A stretch of 5,822 nt of DNA from the IMG/VR virus record IMGVR_UViG_2541047425_000019; one strand, written 5' to 3'. Positions 121 to 5,380 of this stretch are shown piece by piece (position 1 is the stretch's first letter; every line of letters starts with the position of its first letter). A model generated the notes under the pieces. It searched no databases. It saw only the letters and a program-made list of their open reading frames with translations, and was not told the origin of the DNA. Made by a program: the position numbers and the translations under genes. This stretch comes from a virus. Taxonomy: Duplodnaviria > Heunggongvirae > Uroviricota > Caudoviricetes.

Positions 121-164
121 AAAAAAGGGCGGCAGAGCAGTTACGGAGTAAAACTGATACCGCC
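121..164 (-). terminator. Possible intrinsic terminator (minus-strand orientation), interrupted stem
   Basis: Outer arms GGCGG (128-132) / CCGCC (160-164) and inner arms CAGTT (138-142) / AACTG (152-156); the A6 run at 121-126 is a U6 tract immediately 3' of the stem on the minus-strand transcript. The stem is interrupted and the enclosed region is long, so this is weak. Confidence 0.2.
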
Positions 165-514
165 AAATGTCACCAGAATATTGATAACAGAGGGCGTTGC
201 AGCGGGGTTGTCACTTAAGCGTATGGTCAACCTGACAACCCGGTGTCCTCAACGGGGAAAGAATAACCCCGCCATACTTACCGCCGCGCCATTTCGCGGA
301 TTGCCACAACCGGAAGCGCACGGTCGAATTAAATTTAACGACGGCTCTAAGGGAGAAGGACTTCGCCGTGCACTTTCGTGTTATGCCCTGACTTTTCAGG
401 GATATATCCTTTCAGTAAACTGTCAGTGCCGGATTCTTATCTGTGTCCGGCGCACGACCACACGTAGCAGCGTGTTGGTCTCCATTTTTAATTCAGCCCT
501 TAATGGAGGATAAA

Positions 515-2356: not shown

Positions 2357-2758
2357 TCACGCCCGGCGGCTTTTTTGTGCCGCCAGCCACCTAGCAATGG
2401 TTTCTTCCATTGATTTTTTCTTGTCTTTGATTTCTTGAAGCATTTTTTCTTGGTCTTCCTCAGGAAACGCACTAAAAGCTTGGAGCAGTTCGCGTTGGCG
2501 AGGACCAATTTTCATCGTGTCAGGGGTGAAAATTTGCTCACACTCTTCAGGAGGCAATAAAAACCAATGCAATGGATGCCCTGAAACCTCAACCAGTTTA
2601 TCCAAACTTGAGGCTTTAGGTGTAGCCTTACCGCTGACCCATTGTTGAACAGTTTGTTGTGTCACACCAATTCTACGGGCAAGCTCAGCCTGGCTCCATC
2701 CAGTTTCCTGAAGAAGCTTGCTGATTCTGTACATAGATACTTCTAGGGCGCTCATCAT
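2357..2758 (-). CDS. paaR: DicA/PaaR-like HTH (XRE-family) transcriptional repressor; likely the CI-type prophage repressor and TA regulator (133 aa)
   Basis: Track ORF; N-terminal HTH (…WSQAELARRIGVTQQTVQQWVSG…) and a C-terminal region resembling the DicA C-terminus (…RQRELLQAFSAFPEEDQEKMLQEI…). Transcribed divergently from the cro-like gene. No SD before the ATGATG start, and a TAAAAT -10-like hexamer sits 7 nt upstream, so the mRNA may be leaderless. The exact start (M1, M2 or M9) is uncertain. Confidence 0.8.
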   Translation of the reverse strand: MMSALEVSMYRISKLLQETGWSQAELARRIGVTQQTVQQWVSGKATPKASSLDKLVEVSGHPLHWFLLPPEECEQIFTPDTMKIGPRQRELLQAFSAFPEEDQEKMLQEIKDKKKSMEETIARWLAAQKSRRA

Positions 2759-2866: not shown

Positions 2867-3139
2867 ATGCTAGATAGCACTCGCGAAAAAATTAGGCAGA
2901 AATACACTCAGGCTGAAATAGGTCGTTATATGGGGGTCGCTCAACAGACTGTTTGGCAATGGTTTAGCTTTGGCGTTCCCCCAAAGCAGGTAATTCCGTT
3001 ATGCCAACTAATGAAGTGGGAAGTTACCCCGCATGAAATCCGCCCAGATATTTATCCTAACCCAACCGACGGTTTACCTGTTGGATGTAAGGTTAACACA
3101 TCAAATGCGCCGGAGTTGATTCATGAAAATCAAGCATGA
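2867..3139 (+). CDS. ydaS: Cro-like HTH regulator of the YdaS family (90 aa)
   Basis: Track ORF; GGAGG 6 nt upstream of the ATG; HTH (…IGRYMGVAQQTVWQW…) and the YdaS-family hallmark …VTPHEIRPDIYP…. First gene transcribed rightward from the operator region. Confidence 0.8.
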   Translation: MLDSTREKIRQKYTQAEIGRYMGVAQQTVWQWFSFGVPPKQVIPLCQLMKWEVTPHEIRPDIYPNPTDGLPVGCKVNTSNAPELIHENQA

Positions 3140-3548
3140 ACACATCCGCATGGCGATGAATGCCTGGGCGCATCCGGACGGCGAAAAAGTACCGGCTGCG
3201 AAAATTACCAAAGCGTATTTCGAGCTGGGAATGACGTTCCCGGAACTGTATGACGACAGCCATCCGGAAGCCATGGCTCGCAATACTCAGAAAATTTTCC
3301 GCTGGGTGGAGAAAGACACTCCTGATGCGGTTAAAAAAATTCAGGCGTTGTTACCAGCGATCGAAAAAGCGATGCCGCCTCCGCTGGTGGCCCGAATGCG
3401 CAGCCACAGTTCCGCTTATTTTCGGGAGTTGGTAGAGACGAAGGAACGGCTGGTGAAAGATATTGATGATTTCGTTGCATCAGCGATCGTTCTGTTCGAT
3501 CAGATGAATCGTGGTGGCCCGGCAGGAAACACTCTGGCTGTGCATTAA
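3123..3548 (+). CDS. ydaT: YdaT-like protein (141 aa), proposed functional analogue of CII in Rac/CP-933P-type prophages
   Basis: Track ORF; N-terminus MKIKHEHI… matches my recollection of YdaT proteins. It overlaps the end of the cro-like gene by 17 nt in another frame, typical of a coupled operon; GGAG lies 7 nt upstream. Confidence 0.75.
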   Translation: MKIKHEHIRMAMNAWAHPDGEKVPAAKITKAYFELGMTFPELYDDSHPEAMARNTQKIFRWVEKDTPDAVKKIQALLPAIEKAMPPPLVARMRSHSSAYFRELVETKERLVKDIDDFVASAIVLFDQMNRGGPAGNTLAVH

Positions 3549-3561
3549 TTGGGTAATAAAT

Positions 3562-4071
3562 ATGAGTAATGACAAAAAATTGACACTGAGCGTTTACGAA
3601 AACAGTCCGCACATCTGGCGTGGCGGTTTATCTGATGTGGAGCTGGCAGAGTGGTTGATACATAAAGCTAATGCGCTGCTCTGGCGTTTGTCAGCCAGAG
3701 AACAGCGCAAGGAAACCAGAATAAAGCTGGCTGATGCAGAAGCGTGTGCCGGGCTTATTGAGGATTATACAAATCTTGGTATTTCTTCAGCAGAGAGTGA
3801 TCCCATTCAGCCTCTGAGCAGGGAGTCAATCCAGCACGCTGGTTGTATGGCACATCTTGTAACTGCTCGTCAACATGAGGTGGGTATTGGATCACTTCCG
3901 GCGGGATATTCGCTGATTCCAGAGCTGGTTGAAGCAAGAAAATCAGTTCAGAAAAAGAGAGATGACGCACTTCAATTATTGAGAGAGCACTATGGCGCGA
4001 TACCAGAATGCGAACAGCGTCGATACCCTGAAGGTTATGAATGGATGCAGTCTCTTTTTGAAGTTCGCTAA
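3562..4071 (+). CDS. Hypothetical protein (169 aa), inserted between the CII analogue and the replication genes
   Basis: Track ORF 3511..4071 trimmed to the ATG at 3562; the track's GTG start at 3511 would overlap ydaT. First-codon-position G is about 36% by hand count, typical of real coding. The RBS is weak, and a long antisense ORF with a strong RBS overlaps it (see findings). Confidence 0.5.
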   Translation: MSNDKKLTLSVYENSPHIWRGGLSDVELAEWLIHKANALLWRLSAREQRKETRIKLADAEACAGLIEDYTNLGISSAESDPIQPLSRESIQHAGCMAHLVTARQHEVGIGSLPAGYSLIPELVEARKSVQKKRDDALQLLREHYGAIPECEQRRYPEGYEWMQSLFEVR

Positions 4072-4288
4072 TCAATATGTCGAGACGAAGGTATGTTTCG
4101 GCGCGCAGCCAGGCTCTGTAATCCGGGAGCATTTCGGGGCTGTTACACCAGCGGTTTGTTGCTGCAACATTTAATACATGAGCCTGATAAAGGCTTTTCA
4201 AAAAATACATGTCGAACCTCCTCTGGTTCTGTCGATTGGGAACCACAGATTATATCCGGAGGAAGGTTCGGCACCAGATGAGGTAGCC

Positions 4289-5380
4289 ATGCGTGATTAC
4301 GCAAAAGTTTCTCCGCGATTCTGGCTGGGAGAAACGGGGAGAGAACTTAGAAAGGCGGGTGCAGAAGCGCAAGTTGTTGCTTTTTACCTGATGACATCCC
4401 CTCACGCAAATATGCTGGGTTTGTATTACCTGCCAGTTTTATACCTTGCTCATGAAACCGGGCTTGGTCTGGAAGGGGCTTCAAAGGGGCTTAAAAGGGC
4501 TGTTGAAGCTGGTTTTTGTAGCTATGACCATGATGCAGAGATGGTCTGGGTCCATGAAATGGCAGCCTGGCAGGTTGGGGAAACGTTGAAGCCTGGCGAT
4601 AACCGTTGTGCAGGTGTCAGGAATGAGTATGCATCATTACCTGAAAACGCTTTTCTGTCAGTGTTTTACGACAGATATAAAACGGATTTCCATCTGGATG
4701 TGAGGCGGAATAATAGCCGAAATTCGGTAAGGGGCTTCGAAGGGGCTTTTAAGGGGCTTCGAAGCCAAGAACAGGAACAGGAGCAGGAGAAAGAACAGGA
4801 ACAGGACAAAAACACTATGGTTCATGGCAAAAAAAACACCACGAACCAGGCAGGGGATGTTCAGACCGTCAATCCTGGTCAGCCAGCAGGCACGACACCG
4901 GAAGCCGATTCGGGCGCTGTGCAGCAGGTGATGACCGCAGGGTCGGAGCAATCACACCAACTGCAGCAGCCTGAAGCCGATTCCGCCATTCAGCGGGAAG
5001 CCGATCGGGTAGTCCCGGAAAGCACCGGGCAGTCTGTGGGACGAGTGGATTATCCGGATGTGTTCGAACAGGTCTGGCGGGAATACCCGTTGCGTGCTGG
5101 GGCAAACCCGAAGAAATCCGCTTTCAGTGCCTGGAAGGCCAGATTGCGCGAGGGGGTGCCACCAGAGACCATGCTGGATGGTGTGAGGCGTTACGCGAGA
5201 TACCTGGCGGCGACCGGGAAAGCGGGAACGGAATTTGTTCAGCGAGCGACGACGTTTTTTGGGCCGGACCGGAATTTTGAAAACCCCTGGTTGCTCCCGG
5301 TAAGCGGCACGAACAACCAGCGTTGTGTGAATCATATTTCTGAACCGGATACCGAAATTCCGCCGGGATTCAGGGGGTGA
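4289..5380 (+). CDS. Phage replication initiation protein (O-like; N-terminal DNA-binding region, low-complexity EQ-repeat linker, C-terminal domain of the conserved phage type) (363 aa)
   Basis: Track ORF 4178..5380 trimmed to ATG 4289, which has GAGG 5 nt upstream. Sits directly upstream of the DnaC-like gene with a 6-nt gap. The C-terminal region (…YPDVFEQVWREYPLRAGANPKKSAFSAWKARLREG…) recalls the conserved C-terminus of phage replication proteins; the family assignment is from memory. Confidence 0.7.
   Translation: MRDYAKVSPRFWLGETGRELRKAGAEAQVVAFYLMTSPHANMLGLYYLPVLYLAHETGLGLEGASKGLKRAVEAGFCSYDHDAEMVWVHEMAAWQVGETLKPGDNRCAGVRNEYASLPENAFLSVFYDRYKTDFHLDVRRNNSRNSVRGFEGAFKGLRSQEQEQEQEKEQEQDKNTMVHGKKNTTNQAGDVQTVNPGQPAGTTPEADSGAVQQVMTAGSEQSHQLQQPEADSAIQREADRVVPESTGQSVGRVDYPDVFEQVWREYPLRAGANPKKSAFSAWKARLREGVPPETMLDGVRRYARYLAATGKAGTEFVQRATTFFGPDRNFENPWLLPVSGTNNQRCVNHISEPDTEIPPGFRG
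4726..4812. repeat. Iteron-like direct repeats and hexanucleotide repeat inside the O-like gene (candidate origin)
   Basis: AAGGGGCTT-type 9-mers repeated three times at 4728-4760, including palindromic GGCTTCGAAGCC (4755-4766), then (GAACAG)-like repeats at 4767-4806 and an A-rich tract. A related cluster AAGGGGCTTCAAAGGGGCTTAAAAGGGCT lies at 4473-4501. Confidence 0.4.

Follow-up and report, generated by a model that had tools for sequence, protein, structure and literature searches.

A tail-to-tail pair of probable protein-coding genes on opposite strands in the early region of lambdoid prophages

The locus between ydaT and the O-like replication gene

We analysed a stretch of 5,822 nucleotides, referred to below as the window, which comes from a lambdoid prophage of E. 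coli O157:H7 and comprises its immunity and early region. The chromosome NZ_AP018488 and many further O157:H7 chromosomes proved 100% identical to the window, and the segment was found in 479 of the 5426 complete E. coli genomes. The gene order begins with the DicF RNA (127-178), the sole Rfam match in the window, and runs through a RelE/ParE-RelB toxin-antitoxin pair, a cI-like HTH repressor gene (2357-2758, minus strand), ydaS (2867-3139, plus strand), ydaT (3123-3548, plus strand; PF06254 match and PGAP annotation) and the pair of open reading frames (ORFs) studied here to an O-like replication gene and a DnaC-like gene. The O-like gene (4289-5380, plus strand, with the PGAP start) encodes a DnaD-like helicase loader (phrog_1701, E 8.9e-149). 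This order agrees with that of the paaR2-paaA2-parE2/ydaS/ydaT switch known from CP-933P, of which a homologue has been reported in CP-933M (PMC8630535); in the CP-933P switch, YdaS acts as the analogue of Cro and YdaT as that of CII (PMC8630535).

The two ORFs lie tail to tail between ydaT, their upstream neighbour, and the O-like gene downstream, one at 3562-4071 on the plus strand and the other at 3755-4210 on the minus strand, with an overlap of 317 nt (3755-4071). These coordinates, given in a preliminary description made from the sequence alone, were confirmed. The same description had regarded the segment as an insertion relative to the simplest arrangement of ydaT followed by replication genes; it is indeed an accessory insertion, and in other prophages the position between ydaS/ydaT or cro and the replication gene is occupied by different cargo.

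The plus gene (169 aa; ATG at 3562, stop at 4069-4071) is co-directional with the early rightward operon ydaS-ydaT-...-O-like and carries no RefSeq/PGAP annotation. It matched the PHROGs family phrog_8304 over its full length (398.8 bits, E 4.2e-120, residues 1-169 on profile positions 1-169), a family with no assigned function, and it is the only one of the two ORFs for which PHROGs holds a family. Its ATG begins 13 nt past the ydaT stop, and in E. coli a weak GGGT is all that precedes it, as the earlier remark on a weak ribosome-binding site had stated. An SD-like sequence stands before the same plus start in every genomic context, the upstream DNA being non-homologous, and in Salmonella it is of the AGGAGG type, AGGAGGATATATG. 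No conserved promoter belonging to the plus gene itself was found. The AlphaFold2 model of the plus protein was poor (pLDDT 65.5, pTM 0.40) and consisted mostly of long helices; the conserved N-terminal motif, KVTLTVFKDSPHIWxGGL, was modelled with low confidence.

The minus gene encodes 151 aa plus the stop (152 codons; ATG at the complement of 4208-4210, stop at the complement of 3755-3757; WP_000273724.1). RefSeq/PGAP annotates this ORF alone, as an "ECs1072 family phage-associated protein", and leaves 3549-3754 empty. The minus ORF is likewise the only one with an NCBIfam match, to NF033230, at 105.7 bits against a curated whole-protein cut-off of 70 bits (E 2.1e-30; residues 4-145 on profile positions 3-141 of 142); the family carries no function. 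The minus protein gave a confident AlphaFold2 model with a pLDDT of 90.1 and a pTM of 0.86 from only 17 sequences. Gene callers applied to further contigs chose one strand or the other, and both genes are called in L017, a GenBank Salmonella assembly. For either protein, searches of Pfam and PADLOC returned no match, and no toxin, antitoxin or defence match was found in Pfam, NCBIfam or PADLOC; PDB sequence profiles yielded no credible match, and the fold search with the minus model gave no hits. The literature searched with ECs1072, WP_000273724 and convergent overlapping prophage genes contained no description of the pair.

Homologues and codon constraint across the overlap

For both ORFs, protein searches recovered relatives that were full length and as little as about 50% identical, and a profile search widened the plus family to about 31-35% amino acid identity, with Salmonella enterica subspecies and Serratia fonticola among the named sources. 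The minus family is small, with 23 representatives in 1.84 billion clustered proteins. The DNA of 20 loci was obtained via the proteins, and that of 53 more from IMG/VR via the plus-family alignment alone. Both frames were open and full length in 11 of the 16 distinct modules of the first set, and usually open in the roughly 23 distinct modules from Escherichia, Salmonella and Serratia that extend to about 35% amino acid identity. Among the divergent IMG/VR loci L053-L074, found via the plus family alone, an antisense minus-family ORF was present in all 22; their plus proteins were 34-45% identical to that of the window in 19 cases and 80% in L053-L055, and the overlap measured 257-323 nt where the plus ORF was intact. 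Both protein alignments were scanned against the contigs of one genome per species, and no relatives were recovered; a tblastn search of 50,697 sequenced phages with the minus protein found nothing. The module is known from prophages and metagenomic viral contigs only, in which the pair is kept together across several unrelated genomic contexts.

Each gene can also be lost. The plus ORF is cut to 148 aa in L003/4, frameshifted in L005-7, broken by a frameshift in L062 and absent from L008/9, where an intact minus gene remains. In L021 it is the minus ORF that is broken, by a 21-nt deletion and a nonsense codon at W34. The plus gene is thus damaged or missing in four lineages (L003/4, L005-7, L062 and L008) and the minus gene damaged in one, and neither depends strictly on the other. 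A programmed -1 frameshift at T AAA AAC was considered for L005-7 and set aside, as it is indistinguishable from a simple 1-nt deletion in the A-run.

Within the overlap (3755-4071, about 104 codons per gene), the first codon positions of the two genes lie opposite each other, plus second positions face minus third positions and plus third positions face minus second positions; each base is a first or second codon position in at least one gene. Codon-position identity was measured in a protein-guided codon alignment of lineages below 65% amino acid identity, comprising 23 distinct modules with 239 minus-frame and 176 plus-frame pairs. Both single-coding zones showed coding wobble, with identities at positions one, two and three of.54/.66/.36 in the minus-only 5' zone, where it is clear, and.59/.68/.38 in the plus-only 5' zone. 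Across the overlap the profile was flat whichever strand was read, at.59/.58/.52 for the minus frame and.59/.53/.56 for the plus frame. Third-position identity there reached 0.52 vs 0.36 in the single zone for the minus gene and 0.56 vs 0.38 for the plus gene, and in 2000 column bootstraps the overlap value never came down to the single-coding level (P<0.0005); a smaller set of homologues gave the same result. L008, which lacks the plus ORF, served as a natural control, and here wobble was back in the former overlap (.51/.58/.32, with third-position identities of 0.30-0.32).

The preliminary description had supposed that one ORF must be a shadow, had favoured the plus gene, and had proposed wobble in homologue alignments as the deciding test. 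This test dismisses neither ORF, since no wobble remains in either frame within the overlap and normal wobble is seen in each outside it, and the preference for the plus gene did not hold. The statement that two long antisense frames are not a chance product fared better. In a simulation with the protein fixed and its synonymous codons drawn at random, the other frame of the window stayed open in 0.5% of cases for the plus frame given the minus protein, and in 9.5% for the minus frame given the plus protein. The probability was 0.004-0.5 per lineage, and the product over 13 lineages was about 1e-15 in either direction, a conservative figure since it is conditioned on amino acid sequences already shaped by the overlap.

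F3, an unrelated family with a 97-aa cargo (92-99 aa across the family), has another frame relation between cargo and convergent partner. Its cargo frame retains wobble in the overlap (.62/.68/.41), and the tail of its partner looks unconstrained in this comparison. This result indicates that the codon-position test can separate dual-coding from single-coding overlaps. Flat codon-position conservation may in principle also arise from a single coding frame combined with an RNA-level constraint; such a combination is insufficient here, since it leaves unexplained that both frames stay open.

Judged from the alignments and the simulation, both ORFs are very probably protein-coding genes, and together they would make up a two-gene module conserved in enterobacterial lambdoid prophages. 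If only the minus gene were real over the overlap, the plus ORF would be a shadow, or a protein of about 64 aa with an unconstrained C-terminal extension of 105 codons. The PGAP annotation of just the minus gene, the low-confidence model of the plus protein, the loss or breakage of the plus gene in four lineages and the example of F3 all speak for this explanation. However, minus third positions should then match those of the minus-only zone, against which they stand at 0.52 vs 0.36 (P<0.0005); they are free only in the plus-less L008 (0.30-0.32), and for the plus frame to stay open over 13 lineages, given the minus proteins, the joint probability is about 1e-15.6. We consequently regard a minus-only reading as quite improbable. 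The opposite explanation, the earlier preference, takes the plus gene alone as real and the minus ORF as its shadow. It draws on the higher first-position G of the plus frame (34.3% vs 26.5%; the hand count of 36% vs 26% was roughly right) and on the existence of a PHROG family for the plus protein. Against it stand the clear wobble of the minus-only zone, the minus ORF intact without a plus ORF in L008/L009, the nearly invariant SD, leader and promoter region of the minus gene, the NF033230 match above cut-off together with the minus AlphaFold2 model at pLDDT 90, and the constraint on plus third positions in the overlap (0.56 vs 0.38), and a plus-only reading is hardly credible. Of the two, the minus gene is if anything on firmer ground, as it has the NCBIfam family, the pLDDT 90 model, a conserved SD and promoter region, and persistence in a lineage without the plus gene.

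The leftward start region and the cargo site

The stretch 4072-4288 had been described as a 217-bp gap before the O-like gene. It is not a gap, since 139 of its 217 nt encode the N-terminus of the minus protein, with 4072-4210 corresponding to the first 46 codons of the minus gene. The translation start region of this gene (4211-4229, minus strand) carries the SD GAGGAGG (4223-4217), and the reported start, with GGAGG (4221-4217) separated from the ATG by the 6 nt TTCGAC, was confirmed. The sequence AGAACCnnAGGAGGTTCGACATG, covering the minus SD and leader, is nearly invariant across clades whose coding sequences and proteins are only about 35-50% identical. A 5-bp hairpin is possible round the SD, between GAACC (4229-4225) and GGTTC (4218-4214); RNAalifold predicted this 5-bp SD stem, with 0 compensatory changes. 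A long-range inverted repeat that pairs the promoter spacer CGAACCT(T)CC with the SD GGAGGTTCG was considered as a possible anti-SD structure and received no RNAalifold support.

Further upstream, a sigma-70 promoter of the minus gene is predicted at 4249-4277 (minus strand) from the sequence and the cross-clade alignment. It would consist of a -35 element CTGGTG (4277-4272), the conserved 17-nt spacer CCGAACCTTCCTCCGGA (4271-4255) and a -10 element TATAAT (4254-4249). The other clades have TTGGTG or CTGGTG as the -35 element and TATAAT, TATTCT or GATAAT as the -10 element, at a spacing of 16-18 nt. A strict consensus promoter scan did not call this predicted promoter, owing to the weak -35 element. 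The SD, leader and promoter region of the minus gene are conserved in all clades, and the start region of the O-like gene overlaps the predicted promoter. A terminator was found for neither gene, the minus strand having been scanned over 3400-4450.

The mini-ORF ATG AGG TAG (4278-4286, plus strand), which ends 2 nt short of the O-like ATG (4289), and the upstream GGAGGAAGG at 4258-4266 were both found in the window as described. A role of the mini-ORF in translational coupling had been suggested; this did not stand up, as the 2-codon ORF is lost in three of the five close variants (L011, L013 and L021) and absent from all other clades, being kept in the window and in L010. The GAGG of the mini-ORF is the SD of the O-like gene (GAGGT, 4280-4284), and GGAGGAAGG is the complement of the conserved spacer in the predicted promoter of the minus gene. 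We judge the mini-ORF to be a by-product of the O-like SD and of the flank of the -35 element.

The promoter and leader pattern TGGTGCCGAAC-N35-65-GGAGGTTCGACATG occurred in 99 IMG/VR stretches, where it precedes 45 distinct proteins of several families, among them a BssS homologue. In the cases checked, the leader stood after ydaS/ydaT or cro and before a replication gene. The same leader and position combined with varied cargo mark the site as a hot-spot for cargo genes that share a leftward signal for expression. Since the same promoter and leader precede unrelated cargo genes at this site in other prophages, the minus gene resembles a moron-like, autonomous cargo unit. Small cargoes (56-88 aa) occur alone, and larger ones occur with a convergent partner.

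One such family, F2, combines a cargo of 151-157 aa with a partner of 125-141 aa over an overlap of 194-239 nt. It bears the same signature of dual constraint, with.44/.58/.36 and.46/.54/.33 in the single zones and.57/.59/.49 in the overlap. When compared by hhalign with the present pair (F1), the partners matched at Prob 82% and E 1e-5 and the cargoes at Prob 71% and E 3.6e-5; the N-terminal motif of the partner is common to F1 and F2, and the C-termini are variable. For a second module in L008, single-sequence comparisons with the two families were not significant, and only profile-profile comparisons were. The ECs1072/phrog_8304 pair might be one branch of an old superfamily of convergent dual-coding modules (F1 and F2, about 15-28% identical on both sides) that have in common a conserved leftward promoter and leader at the early-region hot-spot of enterobacterial lambdoid prophages, and in which the overlap itself would be a functional device for joint inheritance and diversification of two proteins that are never co-expressed. 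We offer this proposal as a speculative one. If true, the overlap would weld a lysogen-state protein to an early-lytic partner, so that a change in one tail alters the other.

A more prosaic possibility is that both genes are real and that their overlap is a frozen accident of overprinting or compaction, with the two proteins independent and free of reciprocal regulation. Compaction is favoured in phage genomes, each gene persists without the other in some lineages, and no functional link was found, with PADLOC and Pfam empty and no fold hits. The pair nevertheless co-travels through several unrelated contexts, and its layout is retained in the distantly related F2. In addition, convergent transcription over the promoter and the whole of the minus gene would be expected to cause interference, an expectation that rests on coliphage 186 pR/pL and lambda oop/cII. 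On balance, we consider a frozen accident unlikely, while giving it some weight.

Proposed expression and relation to known systems

The plus gene was co-directional with the early operon, and the minus gene opposed to it, in the E. coli, IMG/VR lambdoid and Salmonella Cox-type loci that we examined. This layout suggests the following scheme. During lysogeny, with the early operon repressed, the predicted minus promoter would be free and the minus protein made; the minus mRNA would be antisense to leaky plus and early transcripts and, having no terminator, perhaps also to ydaT and ydaS. Once the early operon fires, polymerases would cross the plus gene and then run antisense over the whole minus gene and its promoter to the replication genes. 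Such read-through would yield the plus protein and silence the minus gene, by transcriptional interference and by duplex formation between the RNAs. From the convergent gene layout we infer mutually exclusive expression, with the minus gene on in the lysogen and the plus gene on early after induction; as a convergent-transcription toggle, the scheme is put forward tentatively, and its odds may be somewhat less than even. The lysogen/lytic reading would also not be universal, since in L005-7 the module lies beside the repressor gene and is oriented differently relative to the switch. A microarray probe for ECs1072 was reported to give a regulated signal with a 2.1-fold change in uninduced Sakai cultures, which is weak evidence (PMC2241611). 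Searches of the literature and of supplements, including Sakai RIBOseq supplements, returned nothing direct on expression or translation of either gene. Dual coding, an autonomous minus cargo unit and mutually exclusive expression, taken together, form what we consider the best explanation of the locus, and a reasonably probable one.

We also considered a toxin/antidote-like or defence/self-immunity relation, in which the minus protein would be a lysogen effector that the plus protein neutralises at the protein level during lytic growth. An autonomous cargo gene adjoining a partner in the early operon would suit such a relation, as would the partner's N-terminal motif shared by F1 and F2 with C-termini that vary; furthermore, the plus protein is largely helical in its model with a low-confidence N-terminal region, and could fold on binding a partner. 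PADLOC and Pfam gave no match, however, and L008, L005 and L062 retain the minus gene intact in the absence of the plus gene, so that it is not a toxin in need of a plus antidote. An effector and antidote relation is accordingly doubtful. A type II toxin-antitoxin system was rejected, as the genes are convergent rather than co-directional, match no toxin or antitoxin domains in Pfam, NCBIfam or PADLOC, and the minus gene persists without the plus gene.

Long antisense overlaps of bacterial coding genes are still contested. Most reported cases, according to the papers concerned, are young ORFs inside older genes, supported mainly by expression (PMC8850804, PMC9927249, PMC5960689, PMC6294744, PMC7103648). 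What would be new here is a tail-to-tail overlap of two apparently equally old accessory genes. The pair offers clean evolutionary evidence, in that wobble is lost in both frames, each gene brings its own control zone, and a lineage exists as a natural "knockout". The pathogen that carries it is well studied, and conservation of the pair extends to about 35% identity and probably further. The locus also reveals a systematic gap in annotation, with RefSeq omitting the 169-aa protein in hundreds of E. coli genomes and PHROGs omitting the 151-aa one, and its conserved promoter and leader cassette marks a cargo hot-spot beside the ydaS/ydaT switch. Single base changes can knock out either gene while being silent in the other, and the biology is directly testable.

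Among known systems, the antisense genes of EHEC O157:H7, namely nog1, laoB, ano, asa, pop and oloz0137/4542/5029 (e.g. PMC9927249, PMC5960689, PMC6294744, PMC7103648), are the closest by organism. They are young ORFs, mostly lying within an older and wider-spread "mother gene", and the evidence for them comes chiefly from competition assays and expression data (PMC9927249, PMC5960689, PMC6294744, PMC7103648); the ECs1072/phrog_8304 locus is absent from these papers and from the supplement searched. Like them, the present pair places a long coding ORF opposite an annotated gene, of which pipelines retain one strand. Unlike them, neither gene is embedded in the other, the two share their distribution, which reaches about 35% identity and includes a second, paralogous family, and the support is evolutionary (dual constraint) rather than expression-based. 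The Pseudomonas aeruginosa olg1/olg2 are described as evolutionarily novel ORFs inside conserved chromosomal genes (PMC8850804). They resemble the present pair in being long antisense overlaps argued to be under purifying selection in both frames, and differ from it in that the latter is a tail-to-tail pair of accessory prophage genes moving as a unit.

A second comparison is with lambda oop, a 77-nt non-coding RNA, for which Krinke and Wulff reportedly described oop RNA acting on cII and the paQ antisense promoter. As in lambda, a leftward promoter, here predicted, stands just before replication gene O and points antisense into the 3' end of the preceding early gene. Unlike oop, the leftward transcript would encode a 151-aa protein translated from a strong SD, and both strands of the overlap are coding. 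The position is equivalent to that of oop, since ydaT is the CII analogue (PMC8630535). An oop-like antisense RNA was rejected as an explanation, because the minus unit is a 151-codon gene with coding wobble, no terminator was found, and Rfam gave no match at the locus; only the position is analogous.

Morons, accessory phage genes that have their own promoter and are inserted between conserved phage genes, are said to have been described in lambdoid phages by Juhala et al. in 2000 and by Hendrix. The minus gene is like a moron in being an accessory gene between conserved phage genes, at a fixed site with variable cargo, and with its predicted promoter it may also share the moron's transcriptional autonomy. 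It is unlike a moron in that no terminator was found, the promoter and leader are themselves conserved across cargoes, and the larger cargoes overlap a convergent partner.

Finally, the convergent pR/pL switch of coliphage 186 was reportedly analysed by Callen et al. in 2004. In phage 186, the overlap between the two promoters amounts to 62 bp and does not encode two proteins. The layout described here would share with it face-to-face transcription as the proposed basis of reciprocal interference.

A leader shared among unrelated cargoes

The leftward minus gene is preceded by a predicted promoter and leader, TGGTGCCGAAC...GGAGGTTCGACATG (4211-4279, minus strand), which also occurs at the loci L075-L153 and beyond. 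In total, this promoter/leader was found in 99 IMG/VR stretches, where it lies ahead of 45 distinct proteins from several unrelated families, a BssS-family protein among them. The site of these cargoes is constant, between cro/ydaT and the replication gene. The predicted promoter/leader of the minus gene is an expression cassette common to many cargoes.

Other convergent modules

Convergent overlapping modules of a second family, F2, were represented by locus L008 (3554-4009, plus strand, and 3771-4187, minus strand) and by the IMG/VR leader cassettes c18, c30, c33, c36 and c40. The cargo and partner genes of F2 overlap by 194-239 nt, and within this overlap the third-codon-position divergence (wobble) is lost, as in the plus/minus pair of the window, to which F2 is distantly related on both the cargo and the partner sides. 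L008 carries two modules in tandem, one from each family.

The 92-99-aa cargo family (MKVQAVGLFWFRDAIQYHE...; cassettes c2, c5, c14, c17, c23, c26, c28, c31, c35 and c37-39, for example at L076 and L080) also faces a convergent partner ORF, which covers nearly all of the cargo in a frame relation that differs from that of the window's pair. Since wobble is retained in the cargo frame of this family, the partner tail opposite it looks unconstrained.

Variants of the module genes and the start of the O-like gene

The plus-family gene is split at L005 (3394-3645 and 3140-3502) through a 1-nt deficit within an A-run (CGT AAA AAC C). The identical split was present in three independent assemblies (L005-L007), and the frame beyond it is open for 120 more codons; either a slippage site or a frameshift of recent origin may lie behind it. 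The E. coli genomes H60-H63 contain a module shorter by 1 nt (648/649 nt aligned; e.g., NZ_CP027331.1 633387-634034), a possible counterpart of the 166-aa plus variant P0014. A broken minus gene was seen in a single lineage, L021 (Logan SRR14866938), in which a nonsense mutation at W34 is accompanied by an in-frame 21-nt deletion inside the overlap; the plus ORF is still open there (162 aa).

The O-like replication frame can be read without a stop from an in-frame ATG at 4178 (4178-4288, plus strand). A start at this codon would give a protein of 400 rather than 363 aa, and the gene would then run over both the predicted promoter and the beginning of the minus gene. We favour the start at 4289, based on the PGAP call and the Shine-Dalgarno sequence at 4280-4284. 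Within this gene, a Gln/Glu low-complexity run, SQEQEQEQEKEQEQDK (about 4870-4920, plus strand), separates N- and C-terminal halves that match different PHROG families.

DicF and toxin-antitoxin genes

The left part of the window encodes a full-length DicF antisense RNA (127-178, minus strand; Rfam RF00039, 76.9 bits, E 2.8e-16), and dicB is annotated immediately outside the left end in the matching RefSeq record. Genes for a RelE/ParE-family toxin, a RelB-family antitoxin and a cI-like HTH regulator follow at 1851-2329 and 2357-2758 (minus strand). Their arrangement resembles that of paaR2-paaA2-parE2, the three-component system of CP-933P, a homologue of which was reported on CP-933M (PMC8630535).
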